Origin: an uncultured Rhodobacteraceae bacterium
Lineage (GTDB): Bacteria > Pseudomonadota > Alphaproteobacteria > Rhodobacterales > Rhodobacteraceae
Reading direction: 5' to 3'
DNA length: 64,000 nucleotides
Assembly (NCBI GenBank): GCA_947503965.1
Contig: CANNFU010000004.1
Span: 364,654-428,653 of the forward strand
Under the pieces are notes generated by a model. It had not been told where the DNA came from. It worked only from the letters and a program-made list of their open reading frames with translations, and did no database searches. Made by a program: the position numbers and the translations under genes. Of the stretch, positions 25,290 to 60,032 are shown one piece after another (the stretch's first letter is position 1; each line of letters starts with the position of its first letter).

Positions 25290-25718
25290 TTATTCCACCG
25301 TGATCGTGATCACCTCGCTCAGCACGGGTGGGTCATGCGGGACATGGGTCCAGTCGCCTAGCAGTAATTGCAATGTGTGGGTGCCGGTCGGCAGCTCTTT
25401 GGTGATCTGTGTCTGTCCTCCGCCGAAATGCACAACCTGATCAGTGGCAGGGAGACCTGCCTCCATGTCCAATGTGCCGGGGTCGGTGTTGATCAGCAGA
25501 TGATGATGCCCGGTATTGTCCATCTCGACATTTGCCGGTGCGACGCCCATGCCTTCAAGTCCAAAGACAATGGTCACAGGATTTGTCACCGTCGCCCCGT
25601 CGGCTGGCGAAATGATATAGGCACGCGCATCGGCAGGTGCCGCACTGCGATGCCCGTCGGCAAAGACCGCGCTTGCCGACAGTAACCCGGCGCATCCGAC
25701 CGCAAAAAAGAATTTCAT
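25290..25718 (-). CDS. DUF4399 domain-containing periplasmic protein
   Basis: 142 aa with a signal peptide and a GHHHLLIN signature. Confidence 0.65.
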   Translation of the reverse strand: MKFFFAVGCAGLLSASAVFADGHRSAAPADARAYIISPADGATVTNPVTIVFGLEGMGVAPANVEMDNTGHHHLLINTDPGTLDMEAGLPATDQVVHFGGGQTQITKELPTGTHTLQLLLGDWTHVPHDPPVLSEVITITVE

Positions 25719-26079
25719 GATACTCCCCCGTCTCAGGTTGTGAAATGATCGCTACTGTTCAACTAGCGCACGCAGCCGCAACAGCAACATTGACCACTTC
25801 ACCGGTCAGGCTGCTTTCGGATTGCAACCCCCGCGCTGATATCCCGCCTCCAAGGACCCTGCGAATCGGGCAGCGTATCCCCCGCACCATGCGAACCTGA
25901 CATCCGGCCAGCAGCGATAATCCGATCAGAAGGCGCCAATTAGTTCCAATCCATGCCGCATTTAGAGCGAAAAGAGGGGAAACCCGGTATTTCACGATGG
26001 CATCAAACTGCCTATAGTCTATTGAAAAGCGGTCACAAACGCGCATTACGTGATAAATACTGGTTGGGAGGCCAATACT

Positions 26080-26361
26080 ATGATCCGTTCCGAACTCATC
26101 CAGAAAATTGCTGACGAAAATCCCCATCTTTACCAACGGGACGTCGAAAAGATCGTGAACACTATCTTTGAAGAGATCACGAGCGCTATGTCGCGTGGCG
26201 ACCGGGTCGAACTGCGCGGGTTTGGTGCGTTCTCGGTCAAAAAGCGGGATCAACGCATCGGGCGCAACCCGCGCACGGGCGAGTCTGTGCAGGTCGAGGA
26301 GAAGCATGTGCCATTCTTCAAGACGGGAAAACTGCTTCGTGATCGTCTGAACGGCAATTAG
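26080..26361 (+). CDS. ihfB: integration host factor subunit beta
   Basis: It begins [33 protein letters not shown]..., IHF/HU fold. A GGGAGG RBS lies before the ATG at 26080. Confidence 0.9.
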
Positions 26362-26393
26362 AGGCTGTTCATTTCCGGCGCGAAATGCGCTAG

Positions 26394-26759
26394 ATGAGTC
26401 GTATGAAAACTATTCGCTATGCTTTTTGGGCCATCATTGGCCTTTGCCTGATCCTGATCGGACTGGCCAACCGTGACATTGTAACGGTCCGCGCCATGCC
26501 CGAAGCCCTGGGCGAGCTTTTGGGTCTGTCACCGGATGTACAGTTGCCGCTGTTTGTCGTGATCTTCCTTGGCGTTGGGGCCGGTTTGATGATCGGCTTT
26601 CTGTGGGAATGGGTGCGTGAGCACCGCATCCGGGCCGATGCGCGTGGCAAGGCGCGCGAGGTCGAGAACCTCAAGCGCGAAGTGCAACAGCTCAAAGGGG
26701 CTGCTGCTGGTGCAAAGGATGATGACGACGTTCTCGCGCTGCTCGAAAAGACCGGCTGA
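26394..26759 (+). CDS. LapA-domain (DUF1049) inner-membrane protein
   Basis: 121 aa with two TM helices and a charged C-terminal tail. It occupies the conserved position between ihfB and trpF. Confidence 0.65.
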
Positions 26760-27406
26760 TGTCCTCTGATATTCGGGTGAAGATTTGCGGTCTGCGCGAT
26801 GCAACCGCGATGCAGGCTGCCCTGGACGCGGGTGCCGCCTATGTCGGCTTCGTGTTTTTTCCGAAATCACCACGCAGTATCAGTGTTTCAGATGCCACTG
26901 TTTTGGCAGCAAAGGTGCCTGTTGGTGTGGCCAAAGTCGCGCTTGTCGTCGACCCGGACGATACGCAACTGGATGAGATTACAAACCATGTCCCGATCGA
27001 CATGATCCAACTGCATGGGTCCGAGACGCCCGAAAGGATCGCGGCAATTCAGGCCCGTTACGGTCTGCCGGTGATGAAGGCGATCGGCGTCGCGGATGCG
27101 ACGGATGTTGCGCAGATCGATACATATGCCAGGGTCGCCGACCAGATACTTATTGATGCCAAGCCGCCCAAAGATGCAGATCGGCCTGGCGGCAACGGGG
27201 CCCGGTTTGACTGGAACCTGATCGCCGGACGTCGCTGGCCGGTGCCTTGGATGCTGGCAGGCGGTTTGACACCGGAAAATGTGGCTGAAGCGGTGCGCGT
27301 TACCGGCGCGCGCCAGCTTGATCTGTCGTCAGCGGTGGAAAGTGCGCTGGGCAAGAAGGACCCCGCCTTGATCAAGGCTTTCACAGACGCTGTGCGTGCG
27401 ATTTAA
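26759..27406 (+). CDS. trpF: phosphoribosylanthranilate isomerase
   Basis: It begins [21 protein letters not shown].. and has a TIM-barrel PRAI. Its start overlaps the lapA-like stop. Confidence 0.85.
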
Positions 27407-27438
27407 CCTTTCGTTCACCAAAAATATCCATATTTCTG

Positions 27439-27672
27439 GTGATGCATGGCGTCTCTGTTCATATCTCTCCGGAACGCTGGCTGCGTCAGATGTTTTCGGC
27501 GCAGGCCGCGCGTGATGGCGGGGTGATCCGGCGACAGGTGCAGGATGTGGAACGGCTGATCGGTCGAGATCTCTTTGAATCAGAGCTACGACGGCGCGGC
27601 TATTGCGCGGTCGAGAATGCCGGACAGTATGTTGTCTTTTGTAACGCCGAACCGCTGCGATTGATTAAATAG
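27439..27672 (+). CDS. hypothetical small protein (77 aa) inserted between trpF and trpB
   Basis: This is an ORF call only, with no recognisable domain. It is followed by a REP-like double palindrome. Confidence 0.3.
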   Translation: MMHGVSVHISPERWLRQMFSAQAARDGGVIRRQVQDVERLIGRDLFESELRRRGYCAVENAGQYVVFCNAEPLRLIK

Positions 27673-27673
27673 G

Positions 27674-27718
27674 CAAATTCCTTCGAAGGAATTTGACAAG
27701 GCTTTTACAAAAGCCTTG
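27674..27718. repeat. REP/BIME-like double palindrome (copy A)
   Basis: CAAATTCCTTCGAAGGAATTTG followed by CAAGGCTTTTACAAAAGCCTTG. A near-identical composite element lies at 49614-49657. Confidence 0.6.
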
Positions 27719-27801
27719 CGGCACCACCTGCGGCAGGCTGACGCTTTACCATTTCAGACGAAGAAGATACTGCTGGCTGGTGCAAAAAAGCAGGTGTTCT
27801 G

Positions 27802-29028
27802 ATGGCCAACGATCTATTCAACAGCTTCATGACTGGCCCCGACGAAAAGGGCCGCTTTGGTGATTTCGGGGGCCGTTTCGTGTCGGAAACCCTGATGCCG
27901 CTGATTCTGGAGCTGGAAGAGCAATACGAACATGCCAAGACCGATGACAGTTTCTGGGCCGAGATGCACCATCTTTGGACCCATTACGTCGGCCGCCCCA
28001 GCCCGCTGTATCATGCCGAACGGCTGACCGAACATCTGGGCGGCGCCAAGATTTACCTCAAGCGCGATGAGCTGAACCACACCGGCGCACATAAGATCAA
28101 CAATGTGCTGGGCCAAATCATTCTGGCCCGCCGCATGGGCAAATCCCGGATCATCGCCGAAACAGGTGCCGGCCAACATGGCGTTGCCACGGCAACGGTC
28201 TGCGCCAAGTTCGGGTTGAAATGCGTCGTCTATATGGGCGCACATGATGTGGAACGTCAGGCCCCCAATGTTTTTCGTATGCGCCTGCTGGGGGCCGAGG
28301 TCATCCCTGTCACCTCTGGCCGTGGCACATTGAAAGACGCGATGAACGACGCGCTTCGCGACTGGGTCACCAATGTCCGCGACACGTTTTACTGCATTGG
28401 CACTGTGGCAGGCCCGCATCCCTATCCGGCGATGGTGCGCGACTTTCAGGCCATCATCGGTCAGGAAACCAAGGAACAGATGCAGGCCGCCGAAGGGCGC
28501 TTGCCAGACACGATCATCGCAGCGATTGGCGGTGGATCGAACGCTATGGGCCTGTTCTATCCGTTCCTTGACGACAAGGACGTGAACATCATCGGCGTGG
28601 AGGCTGGCGGTAAAGGCGTGAATGCCAAGATGGAGCATTGCGCCTCGCTCACCGGCGGTCGACCTGGTGTGCTGCATGGCAACCGGACCTATCTGCTGCA
28701 GGATGATGTCGGGCAAATCCTTGAAGGGTTTTCGATCTCAGCGGGGCTCGACTATCCGGGGATTGGTCCGGAACATGCATGGCTGCACGATATCGGTCGC
28801 GCGGAATACGTTGCCATCACCGATGTCGAAGCGCTCGAGGCGTTCCAGCTTTGTTGCGCACTCGAGGGTATCATTCCTGCGCTTGAGCCGTCACATGCGC
28901 TGGCGCATGTGATGAAAATCGCGCCCGATTTGCCGAAAGACCATTTGCTGGTCATGAATATGTGTGGGCGCGGCGACAAGGACATCTTCACAGTCGCCAA
29001 ACACCTCGGTTTTGAGATGACAGGTTAA
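27802..29028 (+). CDS. trpB: tryptophan synthase beta chain
   Basis: 408 aa with a PLP-binding lysine context ([11 protein letters not shown]) and the GGGSNA motif. Confidence 0.92.
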
Positions 29029-29187
29029 TTTTCTATTAATATTGGTCTAAACTTTGGTTTAGGTCCGTCGTTCATGGGTTTAATCTGGTCTGTCTAAACC
29101 CATGATCCATGGTGATCGTCGCCTCTTCTTGCGACGACCTTTGGCAATGGTTCGCATGGTGCGAATCGACAATCAAAGGAGCATGTC

Positions 29188-29661
29188 ATGAAAAAAACGC
29201 TACTTTCCACCACCGCCATCTTTGCCCTCACCGCGACCACGGGCTTTGCGCAATCGATCGCCGAACAGGTAGTCACGCAATTACAAGCCGAAGGCTACCA
29301 GCGCATCGAAGTCAAGAACGGACCCAATCAGGTCAAAGTCGAAGCAATCCGCAACGGCCGGAAGCTAGAAGTCGTTTATGACGCCGCAACAGGCGCCATT
29401 CTCGATCAAGAGGTCGAGCCCGTCGATGATGATGACGAAACATCACCCGGGGTCGAGATCTCTGACGAGGATGAAGATTTCATCGACGACGAAGATGATG
29501 ACGAAGGCGACGATGAAGATGGCGACGATGATGAAGATGATGACGAAGACAACGATGATGCCGACGACGAAGACGATGATGAAGATGATGATAACGACGA
29601 TGATGAAGATGACGGCGATGATGCCGACGACGAAGACGATGATGAAGATGACGACGAGTAA
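29188..29661 (+). CDS. secreted PepSY-domain protein with about 80-aa poly-Asp/Glu C-terminal tail (paralog 1)
   Basis: 157 aa. A signal peptide (MKKTLLSTTAIFALTATTGFAQS) is followed by a PepSY-like beta-hairpin region (QVKVEAIRNGRKLEVVYDAATGAILDQE) and then a tail that is more than 90% D/E. Confidence 0.7.
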   Translation: MKKTLLSTTAIFALTATTGFAQSIAEQVVTQLQAEGYQRIEVKNGPNQVKVEAIRNGRKLEVVYDAATGAILDQEVEPVDDDDETSPGVEISDEDEDFIDDEDDDEGDDEDGDDDEDDDEDNDDADDEDDDEDDDNDDDEDDGDDADDEDDDEDDDE

Positions 29662-29676
29662 TCGACGTGGTATGGC

Positions 29677-30129
29677 GTGGTTATGATTAAGCGAGCAATC
29701 ATATGTCTTGCCGTGGCTGGGGCGCCGTCCGATGCGGTGGCCCAGTCAGTCCAGGATCACATCGTGCGGCAGCTGCGCGATCAGGGGTTTAGCGATATAC
29801 AGCTGAACCGGACATGGCTTGGCCGTGTCCGGGTCACGGCGGAACGCAATGACCTGCGCCGTGAACTGGTCTTCAACCCTCAAACCGGTGAAATCCTGCG
29901 CGACTATTGGGGCGATGACGACGATGACGGCGGTCCACAACTGTTCAATCCGGGCAATAGCGGCTCGGGTGGTTCAGGTGGCGGGTCATCCGGTGGTGAT
30001 GACGACGAAGACGATCGCGATGATGATGATGATCGTGACGATGACGACGAAGATGATGACGATGATGAAGACGACGATGACGATGAAGACGACGATGATG
30101 AAGACGATGACGATGACGATGATGACTAA
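29677..30129 (+). CDS. secreted PepSY-domain protein with Gly/Ser linker and poly-Asp C-terminal tail (paralog 2)
   Basis: 150 aa with a signal peptide and a PepSY-like region (RVRVTAERNDLRRELVFNPQTGEILRDY). A GSGGSGGGSSGG linker precedes a tail of about 60 aa that is almost pure D/E. GTG at 29677 or ATG at 29683. Confidence 0.7.
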   Translation: MVMIKRAIICLAVAGAPSDAVAQSVQDHIVRQLRDQGFSDIQLNRTWLGRVRVTAERNDLRRELVFNPQTGEILRDYWGDDDDDGGPQLFNPGNSGSGGSGGGSSGGDDDEDDRDDDDDRDDDDEDDDDDEDDDDDEDDDDEDDDDDDDD

Positions 30130-30161
30130 CGCCGACTGATTTCAAAGGAGGCGACACCCCA

Positions 30162-30647
30162 GTGAAGCGCCAATGGCATGTCCTCGTCATTGTCTGTGTC
30201 CAGGTGCTTTGCGCCTTTTTTTTCGTTTCACAGATTCTGGCATCCATCATCGGTATCGGACCCGTCAGTTGGCAGGTCTATGAACTGATTGAATTGGGCG
30301 CAGCACTTGGGCTGCTGTTGGGTGTCGGATTGGGGTGGATTGTCTTGCGCCGCACAATGGCCCGCAATGTCGTGGTCGAGGATCAGTTACGCGTCGCGTC
30401 AGGCGCATTTCTCGACGTGATGGAGGAACGGTTCACCACCTGGGAGTTAACCCCCGCAGAACGCGACGTGGCGCTGTTCGCGATCAAAGGTATGTCAACA
30501 CAGGAAATCGCCACCCTGCGCGAGGTCAGTGAAGGCACAATCAAGGCGCAAACCAACGCGATTTATCGCAAGGCCGGTGTGTCAGGCCGCACCCAATTGC
30601 TCAGCCTGTTCATCGACGACCTGATGGCGGATGTGACGCCGGGCTAA
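30162..30647 (+). CDS. membrane-anchored LuxR-family (HTH) transcriptional regulator
   Basis: GTG start 10 nt after an AAGGAGG RBS. Two N-terminal TM helices precede a C-terminal LuxR-type HTH (LTPAERDVALFAIKGMSTQEIATLREVSEGTIKAQTNAIYRKAGV). Confidence 0.7.
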   Translation: MKRQWHVLVIVCVQVLCAFFFVSQILASIIGIGPVSWQVYELIELGAALGLLLGVGLGWIVLRRTMARNVVVEDQLRVASGAFLDVMEERFTTWELTPAERDVALFAIKGMSTQEIATLREVSEGTIKAQTNAIYRKAGVSGRTQLLSLFIDDLMADVTPG

Positions 30648-30962
30648 CCCAGGGTCAGTCCAAACCGCGCAATATCTGCCAAGATCCAGTCGAGGATCGC
30701 GCGCAGCCACGGCCGCTAAATCCACGGCGCCTTTTCATTTATTGCGCAACTTGGTAATTTTGTTGCGCGCACGCCACAGTTTGAAAACTGGCCTGATTTC
30801 TAAGGTTGAGCGAATCCAACCCTTCCCTCTATTCAGCACATCCCGATCAGACGGATCGGACCCTAGCGGCCAGAGGTGATCACTCTGCCGGTGCGGGCGG
30901 CGCTGCCAGCCCCGTATGCCAGGGTCGGGACGTTGAATGGGGCTTGGCCTGTTACGCCAATG

Positions 30963-31039
30963 TTCGATGTAGCTCATCTGGATAGAGCAATAGACTACGA
31001 ATCTATAGGGAGCGGGTTCGAATCCCGCCATTGAAACCA
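30963..31039 (+). tRNA. tRNA-Arg (anticodon ACG), CCA encoded
   Basis: Manual cloverleaf from the sequence. The acceptor stem TTCGATG/CATTGAA has one G-U pair. D arm GCTC-atctggata-GAGC. Anticodon arm ATAGA-ctACGaa-TCTAT. Variable loop AGGGA. T arm GCGGG-ttcgaat-CCCGC. Discriminator A, then CCA. Confidence 0.85.
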
Positions 31040-31430
31040 ACGGTAAATGGGAAACCATTGAGGTTCGACTCCTCATCTGACGTCTTCAAAACGTCTTCCA
31101 TTCGGGTATCCGGGGTTGCCTCAGCAGGGGTGGCCTGCCCGCTTGTGGCCGCCTGACGGTCGCAAAACGAACGGTCATCGCTGCTCTGCCCTTTTGGCGG
31201 CAACAGGCGATGGCAGGCACGGCCCTTGGTCCGGCAAAGGTGGTTTCGACCGCCCCACACCGCGCCTTTGGCCTTGCCTGCCCGCTCACCTCGTTGCCCC
31301 CGAATGGGCATGGCGCGGGGCGGCCTCGGATATCTTTCACACCTGTCACCCATCCCGGGTGCAACCAACCAAACCCAAAGGAGATCGCATTGCGACACCG
31401 ACGTTAACCGCAGGAGAATGAAGGAGAAGA

Positions 31431-32567
31431 ATGATGTTGCGGATACTTGATACACTGACTGGCCACCGGCGGCTGGTTCTGACCGAAAACGACCGGGCCA
31501 TCCTGACGCGCAAAGGGCGGATCGTCGATCTGCTGGGCGCAGGCGAACACCGGATCAAACGCAACGATGTGGTCGAGGCACATAACCTGACCTCGGCTTT
31601 CTTCACCGGCGGAAACGTTGACACGCTTTTGCGGGACGCACCTGATCTTGTGGCGACACATCTGGTCGAGGTTCGGACGTGCGCGACCGAGGTTGCTTTG
31701 GTGGCGCGGGACGGGCGGCTGATGACAGCGCTTGCGCCTGACAGCCGGACGCATCTTTGGGCAGATGCGGGGCCTTTCGATATCACGCGGCACGATGTAG
31801 CGGCTGATGTGCGGGTGCCCGGTGATCTGGCCAAGCGGCTGGTCCGGGGGCGGTTGGTTAGCCTACTCACCTCGGTCGAGGTGCCCGAAGGCCATGTGGG
31901 CGTCATGACCCTTGATGGGACAAACCCCACCGTGCTGGACCCCGGTTTGCACACGTTCTGGAATGTCGGACCCAAAGTGGCGGTCAAACTGGTCGACACG
32001 CGGCTCCGGTCCCATGACGTGACCGGGCACGAGATCCTGACACGTGACCGGGTAACGCTGCGGGTAAACCTTGCGGCAGACTTCCGGGTCGTGGACCCTG
32101 TGACAGCCGTCACAAAGGTCCGGGATTTCGAGGAGGCCTTGCACCGGGCCTTGGGTCTGGCCTTCCGGCGGACACTAGGGGCGCTGACGCTTGATGCGCT
32201 GTTGGCCGACAAGGTCGCCGTTGACGAAGGGGCCGCAGATGCGGTGCGGACGGAAATGGCCGGTCTTGGCGTCGAAGTGGGTGCGATCGCGTTGAAAGAC
32301 GTGATCCTGCCCGGTGAGATGCGGGACATTCTGACAGCGGTCGTCGCGGCTGAAAAGGAGGCCGAAGCCAACGTCATCCGGCGGCGGGAAGAAACGAACG
32401 CAACGCGGTCGCTTCTGAACACCGCCAAGGTGATGGCCGAGAACCCTGTGATGCTGCGGCTGAAAGAGCTGGAAGCGTTGGAGGTGATCGCCGGCAAGGT
32501 CGAGCGGTTGACCGTGCATAACGGCACCGCGGGTCTGTTGGGTGATATCGCCAAACTGCGGGACTAA
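31431..32567 (+). CDS. SPFH/band-7 (slipin-like) domain protein with an uncharacterized ~150-aa N-terminal domain
   Basis: 378 aa. The C-terminal two-thirds shows the SPFH pattern (ALTLDALLADKVAVDEGAADAVRTEMAGLGVEVGAIALKDVILPGEMRDILTAVVAAEKEAEANVIRRREE). No N-terminal TM is obvious. It lies in a locally very GC-rich stretch. Confidence 0.65.
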   Translation: MMLRILDTLTGHRRLVLTENDRAILTRKGRIVDLLGAGEHRIKRNDVVEAHNLTSAFFTGGNVDTLLRDAPDLVATHLVEVRTCATEVALVARDGRLMTALAPDSRTHLWADAGPFDITRHDVAADVRVPGDLAKRLVRGRLVSLLTSVEVPEGHVGVMTLDGTNPTVLDPGLHTFWNVGPKVAVKLVDTRLRSHDVTGHEILTRDRVTLRVNLAADFRVVDPVTAVTKVRDFEEALHRALGLAFRRTLGALTLDALLADKVAVDEGAADAVRTEMAGLGVEVGAIALKDVILPGEMRDILTAVVAAEKEAEANVIRRREETNATRSLLNTAKVMAENPVMLRLKELEALEVIAGKVERLTVHNGTAGLLGDIAKLRD

Positions 32568-32652
32568 AACGGACCCATCCGGGGCATCCCCGGGTGGGTC
32601 CTTTTGCGCATCGCCTAGCCAGACCAAACACCGCGGCGCAAAGGTGGTGGCG

Positions 32653-33450
32653 TCAATACGGCTTTTCAATTCCCAGCGTCTTGCGCAATTGCGCCCATGT
32701 CGCCGCCTCGAACCGTTCAGGCCAGTCTGCACCAATGGCCTTCGCGCGGTCCCGGGCGCGCGGCAGATAGACTTTGGCATAGGCCAGATGCGTGTCAATC
32801 ATCGCTTGTCGTTCCGGCACTGGCGGTGGGAGCGAGAGTATCAAATCCTTCTGCTCATCCGTGATCAACCGATTGAGATGCAGAATGCCCCCGCGGTTCG
32901 GTGCGTTCGTTTCGGCGATCAGCAAGTCGACCAGCTTGTTGCGCAGATGGAACACGCCCAGCACGCCGTTTATATATTCTTCGCGACCGGCGGCCAAATG
33001 TAACAAACCCAGTATACGAATGAATTCCTCGACCTGATAGGTGAACCGCTTTGGGTCAGGCACGACCTCAGGCGATTCTGCAGCCAAGCCTTCGTAGATA
33101 TCATCGTGATCGAACAACACCTTCAGACTGCTTTGGGCATGCGCACGCATCTGTTCGGGCTTCAGGATGATGACATCTGTGCGGGTCCAGTCATCCGTGA
33201 TCGCGTTGATCAAAACGGGAACGGTGCTGCGATCCCACCACAGAACAATCTCACCCGTTTGCGCGACAGCGTCGTACCAGACCTGTGCAACCGCGTCCGT
33301 CGCGCCATCCTCGGCGACCATGATAAAGTCGATATCGCTATGGGCATCCGCCATACCGTTGCCATAGCTGCCGCTCAGGAACAGGGCGCGGATACCGGGG
33401 GCCTCCGTGGTTGCATCCGTGATGGTGGAAATGACGTCGGCGTGGTTCAT
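32653..33450 (-). CDS. nucleotidyltransferase, ANT(6)/AadK-like (aminoglycoside adenylyltransferase family) protein
   Basis: 265 aa with the minimal NTase motif LFLSGSYGNGMADAHSDIDFIMV. Overall similarity is to streptomycin 6-adenylyltransferase-like proteins. Confidence 0.55.
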   Translation of the reverse strand: MNHADVISTITDATTEAPGIRALFLSGSYGNGMADAHSDIDFIMVAEDGATDAVAQVWYDAVAQTGEIVLWWDRSTVPVLINAITDDWTRTDVIILKPEQMRAHAQSSLKVLFDHDDIYEGLAAESPEVVPDPKRFTYQVEEFIRILGLLHLAAGREEYINGVLGVFHLRNKLVDLLIAETNAPNRGGILHLNRLITDEQKDLILSLPPPVPERQAMIDTHLAYAKVYLPRARDRAKAIGADWPERFEAATWAQLRKTLGIEKPY

Positions 33451-33511
33451 ATGGTGCCCTCGACTTGTCTGATAGGGTGCACATTATCAGCCGGTCAGGG
33501 ACGCCACCAGC

Positions 33512-34255
33512 CTACACGTGATCCAACGTCACAGGCTCGGGACGACCGACACGACACAGATCACAGATGCGCACGGCCTCGGTAATGCCCATCAGCGCCA
33601 GTTCACGGAAACTGGGCAAAACGAACGGGTCCGCGCGGGCATAATCGACCTCATACCCGATATCCTCGAACGCGGCGACCGACAGACGGCTGAGCGGGCG
33701 GTCATCGCCCGACAGGAAGCCGGTCAGCAGTTCATCGCCAAAGATCAGCTCGCGCCAATGTCCTTCGCGGGTGCCTGCCCCGCCGGTATTGGACAAAGGC
33801 ACCGCATCCCCGCCCGCCGCATCAAGAGCTGCATATTCCCGGATTGAGGCCGTACCGGTGAACCGCGGGTCCATACTGCCGGTCCCACGGATCAACCCCT
33901 TGCGCGACCAAAGCGTACCAAAGCCCAGAACATGCGCCATTTCATGCAGGATCACATCTTCAAAGCTGCCACCGGCCTCAAGATTCGCCACATCTGCGTC
34001 GTCGAATTGCATGATCCCGGCAACGGGTAAATCAGTATCAGGGCGCAGGATCGTGGGGCCTGCCTGCCCCAAAACGCCGCTCTCGCCGTCGATATCCTCG
34101 ATCATCACGTCAATGCGCACCCCGGTCAGCACATCACCATCCACATCAATCGGCGCAAACCCGGTATTTATGACATTGTCCCAACGCGCCGCCGCCCGAT
34201 CAAAGACGCCGCGACGCCCGGCTGACAATTCTGTGACGTAGTTCAGGGTGATCAT
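33512..34255 (-). CDS. zinc metallopeptidase, HEXXH (leishmanolysin/M8-like motif HEMAHVLGFG)
   Basis: 247 aa. The HEMAHVLGFG motif is read directly from the sequence. There is no obvious signal peptide. Confidence 0.55.
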   Translation of the reverse strand: MITLNYVTELSAGRRGVFDRAAARWDNVINTGFAPIDVDGDVLTGVRIDVMIEDIDGESGVLGQAGPTILRPDTDLPVAGIMQFDDADVANLEAGGSFEDVILHEMAHVLGFGTLWSRKGLIRGTGSMDPRFTGTASIREYAALDAAGGDAVPLSNTGGAGTREGHWRELIFGDELLTGFLSGDDRPLSRLSVAAFEDIGYEVDYARADPFVLPSFRELALMGITEAVRICDLCRVGRPEPVTLDHV

Positions 34256-34503
34256 GATGTCTCTCCTGCATGGCCTATACGAGCATTAACAAAGCAGACT
34301 TGGGCGCGGTGTGGAACCGTAACACGACGTATCGGCGCCCCGTGGCTGACGCCGGGGATCTGCAATGGCCAGATTATGCCTGTCTATCAAACGAGGTGAG
34401 TGTGCAGGGCGCGTTTGGGAAGGTACCACAGCATAACCGAATGCGCTTGTTATGGCAGAAACTGTGCTTGTGACCGCGCCAATCCGGGCAATGGCTGAGG
34501 TGA

Positions 34504-34779
34504 TTATTGGCCTGTACTGACCACTTGATCCTCATCGTCCAATACGGCGAAACGCGCCGCCACACCCATCGCACATAAAATCAGGACACATGTACCACCA
34601 AGGCTGTAGGCGACCGAGGCGCCCAGCAGACCATAGCCGAAGGCCAGCATGATCAGGGCAAAGGCAAGGCCGCCAACGAAAGAACACACAAGGCTCGCCA
34701 TCAAGTTAAGATCATTTGTCATCGAAATATACCACGTTGCATCAATTGCCGACCCGTCTAGGCCAAACCCAATGCACAC
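34504..34779 (-). CDS. hypothetical small membrane protein
   Basis: ORF with two predicted TM helices. The likely start is MTNDLNLM. Confidence 0.35.
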   Translation of the reverse strand: MCIGFGLDGSAIDATWYISMTNDLNLMASLVCSFVGGLAFALIMLAFGYGLLGASVAYSLGGTCVLILCAMGVAARFAVLDDEDQVVSTGQ

Positions 34780-34977
34780 GCCTATGGGAAGATTGTCCGC
34801 CTGTTCCCCAGTCGTAACGTCACTTTCGATTTTTTACGGGTCATAAAAATGCCAAAACCGGCAGATTTACCCTGATTGGTGTGCTTCGGTGATTTGCAGA
34901 ACTGGTGTCCAATAAGTCAAGAATGCACGATTCTGAATGTTCCGTGATATGGGAAAAACGCAGCAAAGGTCGCGACA

Positions 34978-35937
34978 ATGCTAGACTTCAACAGATGGAA
35001 AAGATCGATTACTTTTCTTGAAGGCCCGACACGGGAATGCGCAAACCCCTACGATCAGGATGCGACCGAACATGTGCGCACAGCGCGTATCACTGGGCCG
35101 TGGCATCGCAATATGCCAGCGTATCTCGAAAAACACGCGGCCAAAGGCTTGGCATTTTCGTTCAAGGATGGATTTCGGTGCACAAGCTATGATTTCTTTG
35201 CAGAATTGAGGTTCATCGAAGCCTTCAATGTGCCGACTTACAACCCCGACTTCGATTTCGGTGACATGCCGATTTCCCTTCTGTCAGGGCTTAGGAGGAT
35301 CAAAGCATCAGGGAATGTGAAACAGACCATCGATCTTTCGACGCTACCGCACCTGCAGTCCTGTACGATGAAATGGCAGAAGGCGACTGAAAGCGTGTTT
35401 GAAGCCAAGTGTCTGAAACGCTTGCAGATCCGCAGCCTGAGCAAGCAAGGCGCAGAGGGTCTGGCAAACCTCACATCCCTCGAAAATCTGGAGGTGTCGC
35501 ATAGCGGCATTCATTCCTTCGCGCCAATCAGCGCATTGACCCAGCTAAGGCGACTGTCGCTATCGGTTTGCCGTGGCCTCGAAAACCTTGATGGGATTGA
35601 GGCGCTGCAGAACCTGCGCTGTCTGCATCTGGACGAGGTGCATCATGTGTCTTCTTTTGATTGTTTGACGCCGCTGAAGAACCTAGAAGTCCTGACAATT
35701 GCGGATGCGCGCGACATCGAATCCGTTGCGCCGCTGAAAGAACTACCAAATCTTAGGGCGCTCTGGATCGCGGGCACAAAGACCAGGATTGTCGATGGCG
35801 ACCTGACCCCGTTGACGCACCTACCAAAACTGGCGATGCTGACGCTGGGAAACAAGCGGCACTACAGCCACCAGGTGATCAAGAAGTGGAGTTGGGATAA
35901 CCTCGAAAAACCCGACACATTGCTTGAGAAGGTCTAA
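34978..35937 (+). CDS. leucine-rich repeat (LRR) domain protein
   Basis: 319 aa with about 7 LRR units (LxxLxxLxLxx[CN]xxL: LANLTSLENLEVSHSGIHSFAPISALTQLRRLSLSVCRGLENLDGIEALQNLRCLHLDEV...). GC content (about 48%) is markedly below its surroundings. Confidence 0.65.
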   Translation: MLDFNRWKRSITFLEGPTRECANPYDQDATEHVRTARITGPWHRNMPAYLEKHAAKGLAFSFKDGFRCTSYDFFAELRFIEAFNVPTYNPDFDFGDMPISLLSGLRRIKASGNVKQTIDLSTLPHLQSCTMKWQKATESVFEAKCLKRLQIRSLSKQGAEGLANLTSLENLEVSHSGIHSFAPISALTQLRRLSLSVCRGLENLDGIEALQNLRCLHLDEVHHVSSFDCLTPLKNLEVLTIADARDIESVAPLKELPNLRALWIAGTKTRIVDGDLTPLTHLPKLAMLTLGNKRHYSHQVIKKWSWDNLEKPDTLLEKV

Positions 35938-35946
35938 GGCAGGGTA

Positions 35947-35985
35947 AAAAAACCCGCCGCAGTTTCCTGCGACGGGTTCAATTCT
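35947..35985. terminator. bidirectional intrinsic terminator between the LRR gene and rpsA
   Basis: AAAAAAACCCGCCGCAGtttcCTGCGACGGGTTCAATTC, a hairpin flanked by A- and T-rich runs. Confidence 0.6.
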
Positions 35986-36003
35986 CAAACTGCTAGGTCT
36001 GAC

Positions 36004-37677
36004 TTATTCGTCGCCTTTCAGCGCGGCACCCAGGATATCACCCAAGGATGCGCCGGAATCGCTTGAGCCATACTGCTCAACCGCTTCCTTCTCTTCGGCG
36101 ATCTCGCGTGCCTTGATCGACAGACCCAGCTTGCGGGTCTTGCTGTCGATATTGGTCACGCGCACGTCAACCTTGTCGCCAACGCCGAAACGCTCCGGGC
36201 GCTGCTCGGCACGGTCACGGGACAGGTCGGACCGACGGATAAAGGATTTCGCACCTTCGTAATCCACTTCGATCCCGCCATCTTCGATCTTGGTCACTTC
36301 AACGGTAATGATCGAACCGCGCTTCACGCCGCCAACAGCTTCGGCAAACGGATCACCGTCAAGCGCCTTGATCGACAACGAGATACGCTCCTTCTCGACA
36401 TCCACCTCGGCAACCTTCGCCTTGACGATATCGCCTTTGCGGAAATCACCGATGACATCTTCGCCACGGCCTTCCCATGTCAGGTCGGACAGGTGAACCA
36501 TGCCGTCGATGTCGCCTTCAAGGCCGATGAACAGACCGAATTCGGTGATGTTCTTGACCTCGCCTTCAACCTCAGTGCCCTCTGGGAACTGCTCTGCAAA
36601 GACTTCCCATGGATTGCGCTGTGTCTGCTTGAGGCCCAAGGAAACGCGACGCTTGGCGCTGTCGATTTCCAAGACCATGACTTCGACTTCCTGAGAGGTC
36701 GACACGATCTTGCCGGGGTGCACGTTCTTCTTGGTCCAGGACATTTCGGACACGTGAACCAGACCCTCAACACCGGCTTCCAGCTCAACAAATGCGCCGT
36801 AGTCAGTGATGTTGGTCACACGACCCTGATGCACGGAGCCCAAGGAGAACTTGGCTTCCACCGCATCCCACGGATCATCCTGCAACTGCTTCATCCCCAA
36901 GGAAATACGATGTGTTTCCTTGTTGATCTTGATGACCTGCACCTTGATCGTCTCGCCAATGGACAGGATTTCGGACGGGTGGTTGACCCGGCGCCATGCC
37001 ATGTCGGTAACGTGCAACAGACCGTCAACACCGCCCAGATCAACGAACGCACCATATTCGGTGATGTTCTTGACCACGCCGTCAACTTCCTGGCCTTCGG
37101 TCAGGTTGCCGATGACTTCGGCGCGCTGTTCGGCACGAGATTCTTCAAGGATCGCACGACGGGACACAACGATGTTGCCACGACGACGGTCCATCTTCAG
37201 GATCTGGAACGGCTGCTTGAGACCCATCAGCGGGCCAGCGTCACGGACAGGGCGCACATCAACCTGAGAGCCGGGCAGGAACGCGACCGCGCCGCCAAGG
37301 TCCACAGTGAAACCACCTTTTACGCGGCCAAAGATCGCGCCATCGACACGCTCTTCGTCAGCATAGGCTTTTTCCAGACGATCCCACGCTTCTTCACGGC
37401 GGGCCATCTCACGAGAGATAACAGCCTCACCACGGGCATTTTCAACCTGACGCAGGAACACTTCGACAGTGTCACCGACGGCCAGTTCAGCCTCTTCCCC
37501 GGGATTTGCGAATTCTTTGATATCAACGCGGCCTTCCATCTTGTAGCCGACATCGATGATGGCTTGTCCCGCTTCGATTGCGATGACTTTGCCTTTGACA
37601 ACAGACCCTTCAGCGGGTGTGTCCATCTCGAAGCTTTCGTTCAAGAGTGCTTCAAACTCTTCCATTGTGTTTGCCAT
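36004..37677 (-). CDS. rpsA: 30S ribosomal protein S1
   Basis: 557 aa with six S1 domains. The N-terminus is MANTMEEFEALLNESFE. Confidence 0.95.
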   Translation of the reverse strand: MANTMEEFEALLNESFEMDTPAEGSVVKGKVIAIEAGQAIIDVGYKMEGRVDIKEFANPGEEAELAVGDTVEVFLRQVENARGEAVISREMARREEAWDRLEKAYADEERVDGAIFGRVKGGFTVDLGGAVAFLPGSQVDVRPVRDAGPLMGLKQPFQILKMDRRRGNIVVSRRAILEESRAEQRAEVIGNLTEGQEVDGVVKNITEYGAFVDLGGVDGLLHVTDMAWRRVNHPSEILSIGETIKVQVIKINKETHRISLGMKQLQDDPWDAVEAKFSLGSVHQGRVTNITDYGAFVELEAGVEGLVHVSEMSWTKKNVHPGKIVSTSQEVEVMVLEIDSAKRRVSLGLKQTQRNPWEVFAEQFPEGTEVEGEVKNITEFGLFIGLEGDIDGMVHLSDLTWEGRGEDVIGDFRKGDIVKAKVAEVDVEKERISLSIKALDGDPFAEAVGGVKRGSIITVEVTKIEDGGIEVDYEGAKSFIRRSDLSRDRAEQRPERFGVGDKVDVRVTNIDSKTRKLGLSIKAREIAEEKEAVEQYGSSDSGASLGDILGAALKGDE

Positions 37678-37914: not shown

Positions 37915-39303
37915 TTACCGGAAAATCAACCTGTCCTGTAAAGCATCCAGATCAGCCTGATAGGCATCAACCGCCTCCTGACCCCGAATACCCATGGCAT
38001 CGGCCTGCGCAACCCAATCTGCAATGCGTACCTGAGAGACCTCTTCCAGTTCCGCAAGCAATGCGGGGCTGGCTTTGACAACATTCAGACCAGTATCCAA
38101 CATGTGCCGGCGATGCCCATTGTCGAATGCGTCCCAAGACGCTGACCGATGCGCAAGGTATTCACCCGAGATCGCCTCGATCGCGGCTTGGTCGGCAGGC
38201 GAAATCTGACGCCATGCCTCGTTTGACAGAATGACCGAGAATGTCGGTGTATAAAGGCCATAATCCACTTCGGTTACGGTGCGATCCTCGGTCCAGACAC
38301 CGGCAGCGCGCGCGGCTCCGTGGGCCATAAAGAAGGTGAGTGTCCCGTTCACCTCTTCATTTTGCGCCATCAGCTGCATTTCGTTCTCTGCACGCACGGC
38401 TGCCGGCCCGCGGGTATCCAAGCCTTCAAAGTAAGGAACAGCATAATTGTTCAGATCGGCGACGCCCGCGTCTAATTCAACAGGCTGACTGCTGAGCCGC
38501 CAGATATGCGCAGCCGGAGCAGCCACAAAACCCATGACTTTTGCGTCATCAAAGTAATCGGTGTCCGCAAGATAGTTGGCATGCAAATTCCAAAGCGAAA
38601 CAGCCGTTTGCTCCGCCGATCCCCCCATCAACGGGATCATCGGCAGTTGCAGCAGTGGGTGTGACGCATCCAGATACCCGTTGAACAGGTAGGTGCCATC
38701 AACCGCGCCTGATGTAACAAGTTCAAACTGAGCCTTGGGGTCGCGGTTCATGACAGGTGGGTCGATAAACTGCACGCGCCCCTCTGTCACATCGGCAATC
38801 TCGGCCAGATAATAATCAATGATACCGTCATTCATAATGAATTTGGGTGCGGATGTTTTGTTGAAGGTGAAAACCAGGTTTTCCGTGGCCGAAGCCGTTA
38901 CTGTCGGCGCGTCTGATCCCGGTTCGATGGTTGTCGATGTAGGCACTGGCGCAGTGGCGGCGGCGATCTCGCCCTCCAAACAGGGCACCTGCAGATTTTG
39001 GCCAACCAATATCAGATTAGGATTGCGTCCAATCGTCTCCGCATTGGCCCGATAAAGCGCAGCGAAAACGCTTGTCCCATAAGCACGAAAGCTGATCTGA
39101 CTAAGGGTGTCGCCCCGCACGACCATATAGGGCTGCCCACAGGCGATTTCTGCTGTTTTCGTCTGGGACACCGCTGCAAACGGGGTACCCACAACTAACA
39201 AGGATGCCAGAATACTGGCATTGACTGTCTTACTCACCAAATTACTCCACTCGTCAAAAACTGTTGGTGTTTCGATATACAAATCGAAGAAGACGCGACG
39301 CAA
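37915..39303 (-). CDS. LysM domain-containing secreted protein with large uncharacterized C-terminal domain
   Basis: It has a LysM motif (YMVVRGDTLSQISFRAYGTSVFAALYRANAE...LILVGQNLQVP). The likely true start is the GTG at 39237 (VSKTVNASILASLLVVG signal peptide). Confidence 0.6.
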   Translation of the reverse strand: MRRVFFDLYIETPTVFDEWSNLVSKTVNASILASLLVVGTPFAAVSQTKTAEIACGQPYMVVRGDTLSQISFRAYGTSVFAALYRANAETIGRNPNLILVGQNLQVPCLEGEIAAATAPVPTSTTIEPGSDAPTVTASATENLVFTFNKTSAPKFIMNDGIIDYYLAEIADVTEGRVQFIDPPVMNRDPKAQFELVTSGAVDGTYLFNGYLDASHPLLQLPMIPLMGGSAEQTAVSLWNLHANYLADTDYFDDAKVMGFVAAPAAHIWRLSSQPVELDAGVADLNNYAVPYFEGLDTRGPAAVRAENEMQLMAQNEEVNGTLTFFMAHGAARAAGVWTEDRTVTEVDYGLYTPTFSVILSNEAWRQISPADQAAIEAISGEYLAHRSASWDAFDNGHRRHMLDTGLNVVKASPALLAELEEVSQVRIADWVAQADAMGIRGQEAVDAYQADLDALQDRLIFR

Positions 39304-43662: not shown

Positions 43663-44172
43663 ATGACGACCCAGAATTCAATCAGCAACCTGTCCGAAAT
43701 TGGTGCAGCATTACAAGTCGCTGCGCTGAACAGCTTTGTTGACGTATTCGAATTTCTAGTTGTTGACAATGTGACGACCAACGAAAACACCATCAATACA
43801 GATGGCTATTCGTTTCTGACGTCTGATGTCCCGTTTTTCGATGAAACCGTTACGATTGTTCTCGATACAGGCGATGATAATGACCCTAATGCGAACAATG
43901 CCCTCGAAGAGTCGACCGGCGTCGACTTTGAATGGTTGGCGATTACAACCGGCGACGACGGTATTATCGACAGCCAAGTTACGATGTTAGACAATGGGCT
44001 TTTGAACATCACTGAATATAACGAAGACGGCACAGCCGCGCTGACATCGACATTCTACGATCTGGACGACACGGAGGAATGGTCAATTCTTCAAGTCGAC
44101 GCCGATGGCAATGTGACAGAAATCCCGGACTTTGAATTCTCGTTCTTCCAAACATTTGATTTTGGCTTCTAA
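43663..44172 (+). CDS. hypothetical acidic protein (pI about 3.5), AT-rich orphan gene
   Basis: 169 aa, rich in D/E/T/N, with no signal peptide. GC is about 42% against about 60% background. It has an AT-rich promoter region and its own terminator. Confidence 0.5.
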   Translation: MTTQNSISNLSEIGAALQVAALNSFVDVFEFLVVDNVTTNENTINTDGYSFLTSDVPFFDETVTIVLDTGDDNDPNANNALEESTGVDFEWLAITTGDDGIIDSQVTMLDNGLLNITEYNEDGTAALTSTFYDLDDTEEWSILQVDADGNVTEIPDFEFSFFQTFDFGF

Positions 44173-58653: not shown

Positions 58654-58739
58654 CAGCGACAAGCACCTTACGGCAAATCAACCCATGACCGGTGCCGATG
58701 CATGCAAGCGCTGACACGATCAGAGCGCGAATACGCGCA

Positions 58740-60032
58740 TCAATAGGTGTTCAGCTCTGCAAACAGATCGGCAGGCGCACCTGCAAACACTGCGGCAAGA
58801 TCTTGTGCAAATTCGGCCTCGGTGTCGTATCTGGTCTGGCTGACCAGTTGACCATCATCATCGTAGAGATTGATGATACCGAAATCATGGCCGCCGTTGT
58901 ATCCAAAATCAGAAATATCTTCGCGTGCAAAAACAAGCACATCACCATCCGCATCATATTTCAGATACCGGACTTCATCAGCATCGTCTTCCCACGCGCG
59001 ATAGGTCCGGTTTCCATCTGCGTCGAAAAAGGTGACCATCTGCTCGTATTCGCCGGATGGGACGAAATCAAACAGGATGTTGTGCTGTCCGATCTTGGTC
59101 AGCACGCCGTCAGTATAGAACTTTCGCACACCGTCCGTGAAATCAAAGCGATCATAGAAAATCGCGATCTCGCCATCGGCGTCATATGTGATCTCGCGTT
59201 CCAAAAAACCGTATTTGTTATCTACATCCCAAATCTTGGCATGGGCCAAAACTCCATTTTCATAGGTTTCCCTGGTCAGAAGATAATCATCGTAAGCAAT
59301 AATGCGTTTGGTCAGGACACCCGCTGCATCGTAGCTTTCCGTGATCGTTTCCCAGTCGCGCAGGTTGGTCGGCGCATCAACGAAACGAACGATGGTGCTG
59401 CCATCGCTTTGCACCGTTTCCTTGCGGGTAACTTCGTTTTTCGGAATGCGGCCGTTGCTCCAATCCTCTTCAGAAGCAAAGAATACCTGATCGATGATTT
59501 CACCATTTTCATAGATATCCGCACGCACCCGACCATCATCAGTGATGGTTGCGACTTCATCCAGAATATCATCGTCACCGAAATATTCGATCTTTTCCTG
59601 CCAGCGATACGCGTCGCCCAAATCGGCAGTGCGTGCATAAACCACAGCACCGTCTTCATACACGGCCTTGCGTTCGCGGCCATCGTCAAAGGCAGTCGTT
59701 TTCAACCGCTCAACGCCAGTGATATCGAACGTCACCTGAATACTGTCCCAAGTATACAAGTCATTTTCGCTGTCGTCATAGCGCACAATCTGTCGGGTAT
59801 TAATGACCGCAAACGCGTCCCTGTCATAGAGATTGCGGTATTCCGTCGTCTTGACGACATCGTCATGAGCAATCTCTTCTGATCGGACGCGCACATAAGG
59901 CTCATCAATCGGAAGGCTGAAATAATCCCGTTGTGTGACAATGCCGTTTTCGGTCGTTACGTCCAAACGATCGTAACGGGTATTTTCAATCGTTCTGCCG
60001 CGCGGAAAGAAATCAAATGTTTCTGTAGGCAT
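58740..60032 (-). CDS. hypothetical repeat protein (about 20-residue Y-x-[DE]-[ND]-G repeats), low GC
   Basis: 430 aa with no signal peptide. It has recurring motifs (IYENGEIIDQVFF, TYENGVLAHAKIWD, ITYDADGEIAIFYD, FYTDGVLTKI, LKYDADGDVLVFARED, NLYDDDGQLVSQTRYD). GC is about 47%. Confidence 0.55.
   Translation of the reverse strand: MPTETFDFFPRGRTIENTRYDRLDVTTENGIVTQRDYFSLPIDEPYVRVRSEEIAHDDVVKTTEYRNLYDRDAFAVINTRQIVRYDDSENDLYTWDSIQVTFDITGVERLKTTAFDDGRERKAVYEDGAVVYARTADLGDAYRWQEKIEYFGDDDILDEVATITDDGRVRADIYENGEIIDQVFFASEEDWSNGRIPKNEVTRKETVQSDGSTIVRFVDAPTNLRDWETITESYDAAGVLTKRIIAYDDYLLTRETYENGVLAHAKIWDVDNKYGFLEREITYDADGEIAIFYDRFDFTDGVRKFYTDGVLTKIGQHNILFDFVPSGEYEQMVTFFDADGNRTYRAWEDDADEVRYLKYDADGDVLVFAREDISDFGYNGGHDFGIINLYDDDGQLVSQTRYDTEAEFAQDLAAVFAGAPADLFAELNTY

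Follow-up and report, generated by a model that had tools for sequence, protein, structure and literature searches.

A soluble SPFH/Band-7 protein and the tRNA-like leader RNA of its gene: a probable two-part unit among unrelated neighbours in Rhodobacteraceae

We analysed a 64,000-nucleotide stretch of DNA from an uncultured Rhodobacteraceae bacterium (assembly GCA_947503965.1, contig CANNFU010000004.1, positions 364,654 to 428,653; hereafter the window, to which all coordinates refer unless a locus is named), and within it the locus around a gene for an SPFH/Band-7 protein ('slipin family') and the structured, tRNA-like RNA region that leads into this gene. Proteins were surveyed with a six-frame list of open reading frames (ORFs), Pfam, PADLOC-DB 2.0, NCBIfam and hydropathy, and RNAs with ARAGORN and Rfam 15. 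The RNA region and the SPFH gene are followed by genes for a nucleotidyltransferase (NTase), a leishmanolysin-like (M8) metallopeptidase domain, a small protein with two transmembrane (TM) segments, a leucine-rich repeat (LRR) protein and, from the ORF list, rpsA (36004-37677, minus strand). An earlier reading of the letters alone (the sequence-only reading) had listed this gene content, and the survey bears it out: the ORFs are in place, and Pfam finds Band_7 (SPFH residues 150-321), PF04439 in the NTase, Peptidase_M8 (38.3 bits against a cut-off of 21) and several LRR families in the LRR protein. NCBIfam adds only weak HflK and internalin-type resemblances. Hydropathy shows no TM or signal-like hydrophobic segment in the SPFH, NTase, M8 and LRR proteins, and neither an NfeD gene nor an integrase is found near the locus in the ORF list or by Pfam. 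The SPFH gene and its leader have LuxR, PepSY and trpB genes as neighbours on one side, and the NTase, M8, LRR and rpsA genes on the other.

The SPFH gene (31434-32567, plus strand) encodes a soluble protein of 377 residues; the ORF is longer, beginning at 31431, and we place the start at the second Met in view of the length of the homologues, 376-382 residues throughout. Full-length orthologues are found in several hundred species, at 55-90% identity in Rhodobacteraceae, Mesorhizobium, Sphingopyxis, Shinella and Devosia, and a search of phage genomes returned no match. The protein consists of three beta modules, the SPFH core and a long C-terminal helix. Its N-terminal part of about 150 residues had been described as an unassigned domain. 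It does indeed lack any Pfam match and any sequence match in the PDB, but it is conserved in the same several hundred species and, by an AlphaFold2 model combined with profile comparison, corresponds to two additional, degenerate repeats of the beta module with which the SPFH domain begins. The highest hydropathy over 19 residues is 1.40, with no segment reaching 1.6, and the N-terminus is beta-rich in the model. This is an atypical SPFH protein without TM anchor and without NfeD partner, as the sequence-only reading had also held.

A scan anchored on the SPFH gene, with one genome per species, yielded 80 loci that were compared to the window by tblastn and blastn; the genome contexts of Cognatiyoonia sp. 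IB215182 (locus L081), Cognatiyoonia sp. IB215446 (L082) and Yoonia sp. BS5-3 were inspected as well. No conserved protein partner of SPFH is shared among 17 diverse loci, and the downstream genes are unrelated. Nucleotide conservation over Rhodobacteraceae genera extends from about 30727-30760 to the SPFH start, and one genome (L001) has only 30660-32606, the leader block plus the SPFH gene, in common with the window. By comparison of loci, leader RNA and SPFH gene together (30760-32567) are the only demonstrably linked unit at the locus.

The leader (30760-31433, plus strand; the 'b7a' RNA region) is structured and non-coding, and is made up of a domain D1, one or more tRNA-like units and a domain D3. 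RNAalifold places 101 base pairs on an alignment of 27 Rhodobacteraceae sequences, and 68 of these show compensatory double changes. Across the alignment 92.8% of cells are paired, as against 42-46% when the partners are slid by 1-3 columns, and on each of five measures the observed values exceed those of all 500 shuffles. D1 (30858-30926, plus strand) has four helices and an invariant GUAUGCC; these helices 1-4 are 98-100% paired, with double changes in 11 of 23 pairs. D3 (31106-31333, plus strand) is multi-branched with a long-range closing helix, and double changes affect 42 of the 54 pairs in its helices 9-16. A further hairpin (31347-31361) stands between D3 and the SPFH start. A separate alignment of 17 loci from outside Rhodobacterales recovers D1, two tRNA-like units and D3 in the same order (94 pairs, 56 compensatory); the loci of Mesorhizobium, Sphingopyxis and Devosia contain a D1-equivalent element, and the closing helix of D3, CCGGGG...CCCCGGAU, is likewise found outside Rhodobacterales. 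Rfam 15 recognizes no family in the leader besides the tRNA match.

We further note that a motif at the 5' edge of the leader, TTGCGCAA-N-GGTAATTTTGTTGCGCGC (30743-30772), is conserved in several genera and has the look of an operator or promoter. A sigma-54 promoter was considered for the conserved TGGTAATTTTGTTGC motif and dropped, as only 2 of 81 loci show the strict pattern and its GG is not conserved.

Between D1 and D3 lies the tRNA-like unit (b7a-tRNA; 30963-31039, plus strand, with the cloverleaf at 30964-31034), which ARAGORN calls tRNA-Arg(ACG) and which matches the Rfam tRNA model at 65.8 bits, 395 nt 5' of the SPFH gene on the same strand. It is followed by a truncated second unit (31040-31080, plus strand) that retains a hairpin and the T-arm GAGGTTCGACTCCTC. 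When ARAGORN was rerun uniformly on 81 regions upstream of SPFH, tRNA-like units appeared on the same strand in 79 loci, one unit in 38 and two tandem units in 41. They lie 330-520 nt upstream of SPFH, the 3' end at a median of 400 nt before its start, and a second GGTTCRA T-loop motif is present in 81 of 81 loci. The Sphingopyxis, Mesorhizobium and Devosia loci, whose flanks have nothing in common with the window, carry a tRNA-like unit too. Comparison of the loci thus indicates that the 'tRNA-Arg(ACG)' of the window is a conserved partner of the SPFH gene and not the integration site of an island.

The anticodon position of these units is not conserved. The SPFH-proximal unit carries 27 different 'anticodons' over the loci, and some loops have 2 or 4 nt in this place and hence no triplet. 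The closest relatives share the acceptor, D and T arms and differ in the loop, which reads CU-ACG-AA in the window and in the metagenome-assembled genome (MAG) L002, CC-AUU-AA in Cognatiyoonia IB215182 and UU-UUG-GU in Cognatiyoonia IB215446. Of 22 orthologous loops read off the alignment, 18 retain U33 and A37-A38 around a variable triplet. Since an orthologous decoding tRNA cannot change its anticodon between congeners, the unit is probably not an ordinary decoding tRNA, and this variation points to the b7a RNA being a tRNA mimic. The pattern suggests either a decoy or guide that follows changing targets, or the lack of constraint on three bases.

The stretch between D3 and the SPFH start bears on a different reading of the same features, in which one or more ordinary tRNA genes precede a long cis-regulatory 5' leader of SPFH, for instance an attenuator with a mini-uORF (a very short upstream ORF), and adjacency reflects co-transcription without any ribonucleoprotein (RNP). 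In most Rhodobacterales loci a TTGCGA[CG][GA] motif precedes the SPFH start by 27-52 nt and forms part of a conserved arrangement of a Shine-Dalgarno sequence and an ORF of 4-5 codons. The candidate in the window (31390-31407, plus strand) reads TTG CGA CAC CGA CGT TAA, with AAAGGAG ahead of it at 31377, and D3 comes directly ahead of the ribosome-binding site. These features, like the high tRNA score and the retention of U33 and A37-A38 in the loop, fit a cis-acting leader. Anticodons that change between congeners or measure 2 or 4 nt do not, since orthologous decoding tRNAs have neither. Pairing is moreover retained in lineages with otherwise unrelated flanks, and in the parallel Ro60/YrlA system a tRNA-like RNA is the partner of a protein (bioRxiv 10.1101/312249). 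We consider a purely cis-regulatory leader unlikely. The ORF deserves mention in its own right: AAAGGAG followed by 4-5 codons rich in CGA (Arg), at 31377-31407 in the window, takes the form TTG CGA CGA CGA TAG in many loci, and could be a putative regulatory leader peptide.

Synteny separates the SPFH gene and its RNA from the genes that follow them in the window. Most Rhodobacteraceae loci have trpB 0.8-3.7 kb upstream of SPFH, and Yoonia BS5-3, Litoreibacter and numerous other genomes show the canonical order cmk, rpsA, ihfB, lapA, trpF, trpB, SPFH. A genus-level, Cognatiyoonia-like clade, represented here by the window, both Cognatiyoonia strains, the MAG L002 and the metagenome contigs L091-L092, has the segment from ihfB to SPFH inverted with respect to the DNA around it, and SPFH faces rpsA there as a result. 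Only in this clade do the NTase and M8 genes adjoin SPFH, at the inversion junction, with 80-84% identity among its members. Neither the inversion breakpoints nor the surroundings of the LRR cassette show convincing inverted or direct repeats, and attC-like structures were not found there. Compared across strains, the locus comes apart: SPFH and its RNA stay by trpB, the adjacency of NTase and M8 belongs to one clade, and the slot that holds the LRR gene varies from strain to strain.

Two side observations concern this neighbourhood. A comparison of window positions 25300-32600 with L003, L004 and L083 places a DUF4399 gene (25290-25718) at the other inversion junction. On the trpB side, two tandem genes for secreted PepSY-like proteins with extreme Asp/Glu-rich tails of more than 60 residues (29188-30129 and 30162-30647) precede that of a small LuxR/GerE regulator anchored in the membrane. 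Some genera have this PepSY-PepSY-LuxR/GerE trio upstream of the SPFH module, others downstream of it.

The NTase (32653-33450, minus strand; 265 residues, Pol-beta fold) is only distantly PF04439-like. Its match to PF04439 (Adenyl_transf), at 22.5 bits with a cut-off of 22, is limited to the N-terminal half (profile positions 5-160 of 279); 20 of 21 relatives also match PF04439 weakly (E <= 0.01). Matches in the PDB, to ANT(4')-IIb and LinB (4EBJ, 3JYY), are confined to the motif region. The earlier comparison with aminoglycoside 6-adenylyltransferase, ANT(6), thus holds as a marginal family match, but no ANT(6) structure is found by sequence. The family (468 matches) is present at 68-83% identity in Yoonia, Roseobacter, Tateyamaria, Pseudosulfitobacter, Jannaschia and others, and in three of three other genomes inspected the gene stands alone among unrelated genes with neither M8 nor SPFH as neighbour.

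The M8 domain (33512-34255, minus strand; 247 residues) is stand-alone, with HEMAH and a third His: its HExxHxxGF and a downstream His align to leishmanolysin 1LML (HEMAH, GHW). The absence of a signal peptide, noted before, is supported by hydropathy. At 82-84% identity the peptidase is restricted to the Cognatiyoonia-like clade, and relatives at <=51% identity have no NTase alongside. The wider M8 family (6,630 representatives at E <= 1e-3) consists mostly of modules of big extracellular multidomain proteins, so that the stand-alone, signal-less form is a minority architecture. M8-like domains occur at varied positions in proteins of up to 7,742 residues, and six that were scanned carry Calx-beta, P-domain, PPC or dockerin domains. 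NTase and M8 are probably functionally independent of the SPFH-RNA pair.

The E. coli orthologue of the SPFH protein gives reason to consider the NTase separately. It is a full-length homologue (37% identity over residues 12-376) and occurs between yjbD and lysC in 1,626 of the 5,426 complete genomes (about 30%), in an operon where a gap of 5 nt separates the slipin gene from the gene for the NTase RlaP downstream (263 residues; PF10127, E = 8e-95). RlaP has been shown to extend the 3' ends of damaged RNAs and tRNAs by one or two nucleotides (PMC12776372). The NTase of the window, itself a Pol-beta protein of 265 residues whose N-terminal half weakly matches nucleotidyltransferase families, might by analogy be the NTase part of a minimal Band-7/b7a RNA-repair-like system, acting on the 3' end of the tRNA-like RNA or of damaged tRNAs. 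A direct assignment of this NTase as RlaP was rejected, with no PF10127 match, a BLASTP alignment of the GS...DxD motif only (E = 0.045) and an hhalign probability of 3.5%; beyond this motif the two proteins have nothing in common. The window SPFH and NTase genes are also convergent and form no operon, and their adjacency is limited to one clade and stems from the inversion junction, while in the three other genomes the NTase lacks a Band-7 neighbour. A role of the NTase as partner of the module is accordingly quite improbable.

A T-arm motif lies 187 nt 5' of the E. coli slipin gene, and the 530 nt upstream of this gene combine a tRNA T-arm motif with TGGCAC-N5-TCGC, which is sigma-54-like. 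We also note that in E. coli E2865 (L131, 5267-8682) the accessory island between yjbD and lysC carries a zeta-toxin family gene in addition to the slipin gene and RlaP.

The remaining genes occupy a strain-variable cargo slot (34268-35945), from the M8 start to the rpsA intrinsic terminator (35946-35978, minus strand), which is the right-hand limit of the slot. Homology between the window and its relatives ends at 34258-34267, by the M8 start, and returns at 35946, and the hairpin and T-run of the terminator are kept in L081, L092 and L093. The slot holds a small protein of at most 91 residues, with two TM segments by hydropathy (34504-34779, minus strand), and the LRR protein in the window; a beta-lactamase-family protein and a 166-residue protein in both Cognatiyoonia IB215182 and IB215446; a PfkB kinase and a methyltransferase in L092; and about 0.6 kb with no called gene of at least 90 residues in L093. 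L002 has a 52% homologue of the 91-residue protein at the same place.

The LRR protein (34978-35937, plus strand; 319 residues) is predicted to be a cytoplasmic solenoid. The AlphaFold2 model (pLDDT 89) shows one unbroken solenoid over residues 11-290, and the top Foldseek and phmmer matches, internalin A (InlA), Roco LRR and SDS22, are to LRR domains only. Pfam, AlphaFold2 and Foldseek show no NACHT/STAND/NB-ARC or NEL module, and this bare solenoid does not support the suggestion of a host-interaction effector or NLR-like sensor. The family is sparse, with about 25 full-length members of about 319 residues each that are 48-64% identical. The GC content of the gene had been put about 12% below its neighbours, which is overstated: it is 52.6%, where the ORFs of the window average 57.6% (sd 2.9), and lies 10 points below SPFH, the GC-richest gene here, but GC at third codon positions (GC3) is within the normal range (62.8% against 64.9%, sd 5.4; z = -0.39). 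Elsewhere in the window, the ORFs at 43663-44172 (46.1% GC) and 58692-59882 (49.9%) fall below both the mean and the LRR gene.

Relatives of the LRR gene were also observed in other settings. Two MAG contigs with unrelated flanks, L087 and L090 (7589-8961), have as their sole common DNA a 1.37-kb unit at 73% identity, composed of a 103-residue two-TM protein and a 319-residue LRR protein, about 5 GC points under each host locus and without terminal repeats; the 103-residue partner is absent from the window. A second variable slot lies on the far side of rpsA. It contains a 462-residue protein with LysM and a DctP-like region in the window (37915-39303), a MatE transporter in IB215182 (L081, 17093-18445) and, in IB215446 (L082, 16938-18389), a 483-residue LRR protein about 25% identical to that of the window.

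These results allow the most obvious grouping of the genes to be judged, namely that SPFH, NTase, M8 and LRR constitute one horizontally acquired, integrase-less defence or host-interaction island at a tRNA gene. Three points would suit an island: none of these genes has a functional tie to the trp genes or rpsA around them, the slot with the LRR gene varies between strains and lies about 5 GC points under the window mean, and in E. coli the SPFH orthologue is located next to a zeta-toxin family gene within an accessory island. The SPFH gene and its RNA are, however, syntenic with trpB in most Rhodobacteraceae loci, where the other genes are absent, and the three other genomes have the NTase on its own. 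No copy of the tRNA 3' end (last 16-25 nt, <=3 mismatches) is present in the window, nor are there flanking repeats, and the missing integrase, the typical GC3 of the LRR gene and its lack of NACHT or NEL modules point the same way. PADLOC gives nothing significant, its only matches among five proteins being to the NTase motif at E = 1e-3 to 9e-3, and the proposed defence cassette is not supported. The genes are literally wedged between a tRNA-like unit and rpsA, as had been pointed out, but that unit is the conserved partner of SPFH; and an integrase-less accessory segment does exist, as the variable cargo of 34268-35945, but the four or five genes are not one unit. Synteny thus already largely refutes a single island, which we regard as highly improbable.

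We therefore favour a composite of three layers as the probable explanation of the locus, in which the Band-7 gene and the tRNA-like RNA form a unit and the other genes are unrelated neighbours. In the first layer, the leader and the SPFH mRNA are probably one transcript, from which tRNA-processing enzymes probably release or shape the tRNA-like unit. The SPFH protein, by analogy with HflK/C, QmcA and stomatin, probably oligomerises into a ring or cage, proposed to be cytoplasmic and unattached, given that the protein lacks a membrane anchor. This cage would probably bind the tRNA-like RNA and in this way recruit, sequester or present damaged tRNA-like substrates. In the second layer, NTase and M8 came to lie beside SPFH in a Cognatiyoonia-like lineage, at the junction of the inversion that parted rpsA from ihfB-trpF-trpB. 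In the third, the 91-residue membrane protein and the LRR protein are strain-specific cargo of an integrase-less hot spot behind the rpsA terminator. Exchange of this slot presumably proceeds through homologous recombination between flanks that are highly conserved.

Burroughs and Aravind, in 2016, are reported to have named SPFH/Band-7 modules and 'a novel tRNA-like molecule' as possible cofactors that provide a scaffold for RNA repair. As that work (NAR 44:8525) is described in a later preprint, a Band-7 + b7a-tRNA module occurs next to RtcB and is predicted to be an RNA-repair scaffold with its cognate RNA (bioRxiv 10.1101/312249). The same preprint, on the structure of YrlA, reports occasional partner swaps of b7a-tRNA with YrlA and of Band-7 with Rsr, and states that the b7a RNA had no experimental validation as of 2018 (bioRxiv 10.1101/312249).

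Several observations weigh against assigning the window pair to such a module. The unit scores as a good tRNA at 65.8 bits, and in the window, the part of this genome that was surveyed, it is the one tRNA called. ARAGORN calls no tRNA upstream of the E. coli orthologue, where the T-arm motif is all that is seen. Neither in the window nor in the alphaproteobacterial loci examined is there a gene for an RNA ligase, RtcB, Rsr or RlaP beside the module, and the link to RNA repair is therefore one of homology and literature.

The pair nevertheless has consequences for annotation and for experiment. Annotation pipelines label b7a units as ordinary tRNAs with assorted anticodons and their partner as a 'slipin family protein', a habit that the present comparison corrects; the pair is widespread, being conserved in several hundred species of Alphaproteobacteria. 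The new data comprise a covariation-backed structure for an RNA much larger than a tRNA, anticodon change between congeners, and a clean two-part unit without other repair genes, which together make the system directly testable. The locus also illustrates that odd genes beside a tRNA need not mean an integration island, being an example of an inversion junction combined with an integrase-less slot behind rpsA. A bolder extension, which we hold to be unlikely, is that the multi-domain b7a RNA of about 650 nt and the soluble SPFH protein, co-transcribed, constitute a cytoplasmic vault-like RNA-protein cage, in which the anticodon would diversify against anticodon-targeting toxins as a decoy or guide.

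These genes can be compared with known systems. Like ANT(6) and PF04439 proteins, the NTase has about 265 residues and a Pol-beta motif G-S-x10-D-x-D; unlike ANT(6), it finds no ANT(6) structure by sequence, and it is chromosomal with nothing to link it to mobile resistance. The M8 protein differs from leishmanolysin in being a 247-residue catalytic core without signal peptide or pro-domain. The LRR protein shares with the LRR domains of internalins and Roco proteins a repeat length of 22-24 residues, whereas it lacks signal peptide, LPXTG, NEL, NACHT and Roc-COR, its 319 residues being all solenoid.

In relation to the membrane-bound SPFH assemblies (stomatin PH1511, HflK/C, QmcA-YbbJ), the window protein has neither a TM or hairpin anchor nor NfeD, and has about 150 additional N-terminal residues, which correspond to the two further beta modules. 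Soluble, TM-less prokaryotic SPFH subfamilies (SPFH8 and SPFH9) have been catalogued before (Hinderhofer et al., PMC2636767). The layout of beta-repeats, shoulder and long helix resembles a miniature major vault protein. Relative to the major vault protein and the vault RNP, the window protein has only three short repeats, the likeness is one of resemblance only, and its N-terminal repeats do not match the Pfam Vault repeat (PF01505). Bacterial homologues of the major vault protein have been reported in Myxococcales, Cytophagales and Oscillatoriales (10.1101/872010).

The closest parallels are found among systems that pair a protein with a non-coding RNA. Ro60 (Rsr) and the Y RNA YrlA are, like the window pair, a protein scaffold and a cognate non-coding RNA with a tRNA-like domain, encoded side by side, and they are linked by genome context to RtcB RNA repair. 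The proteins are unrelated, a TROVE/vWA ring in Ro60 as opposed to the SPFH fold here, and the window RNA has a complete cloverleaf, unlike YrlA, which has no tRNA-type anticodon arm. From the Band-7/b7a-tRNA module, as the citing preprint describes it, the alphaproteobacterial pair differs in standing alone, without RtcB, another ligase or Rsr, and in that the tRNA-like unit is embedded in a leader of about 650 nt with the covarying domains D1 and D3. What the two have in common is a Band-7 gene paired with a gene for a tRNA-resembling RNA and, through the E. coli orthologue, a linkage to the RNA-repair NTase RlaP. The window pair thus appears to match a known prediction, the Band-7/b7a-tRNA module as outlined in that preprint, in a stand-alone form.

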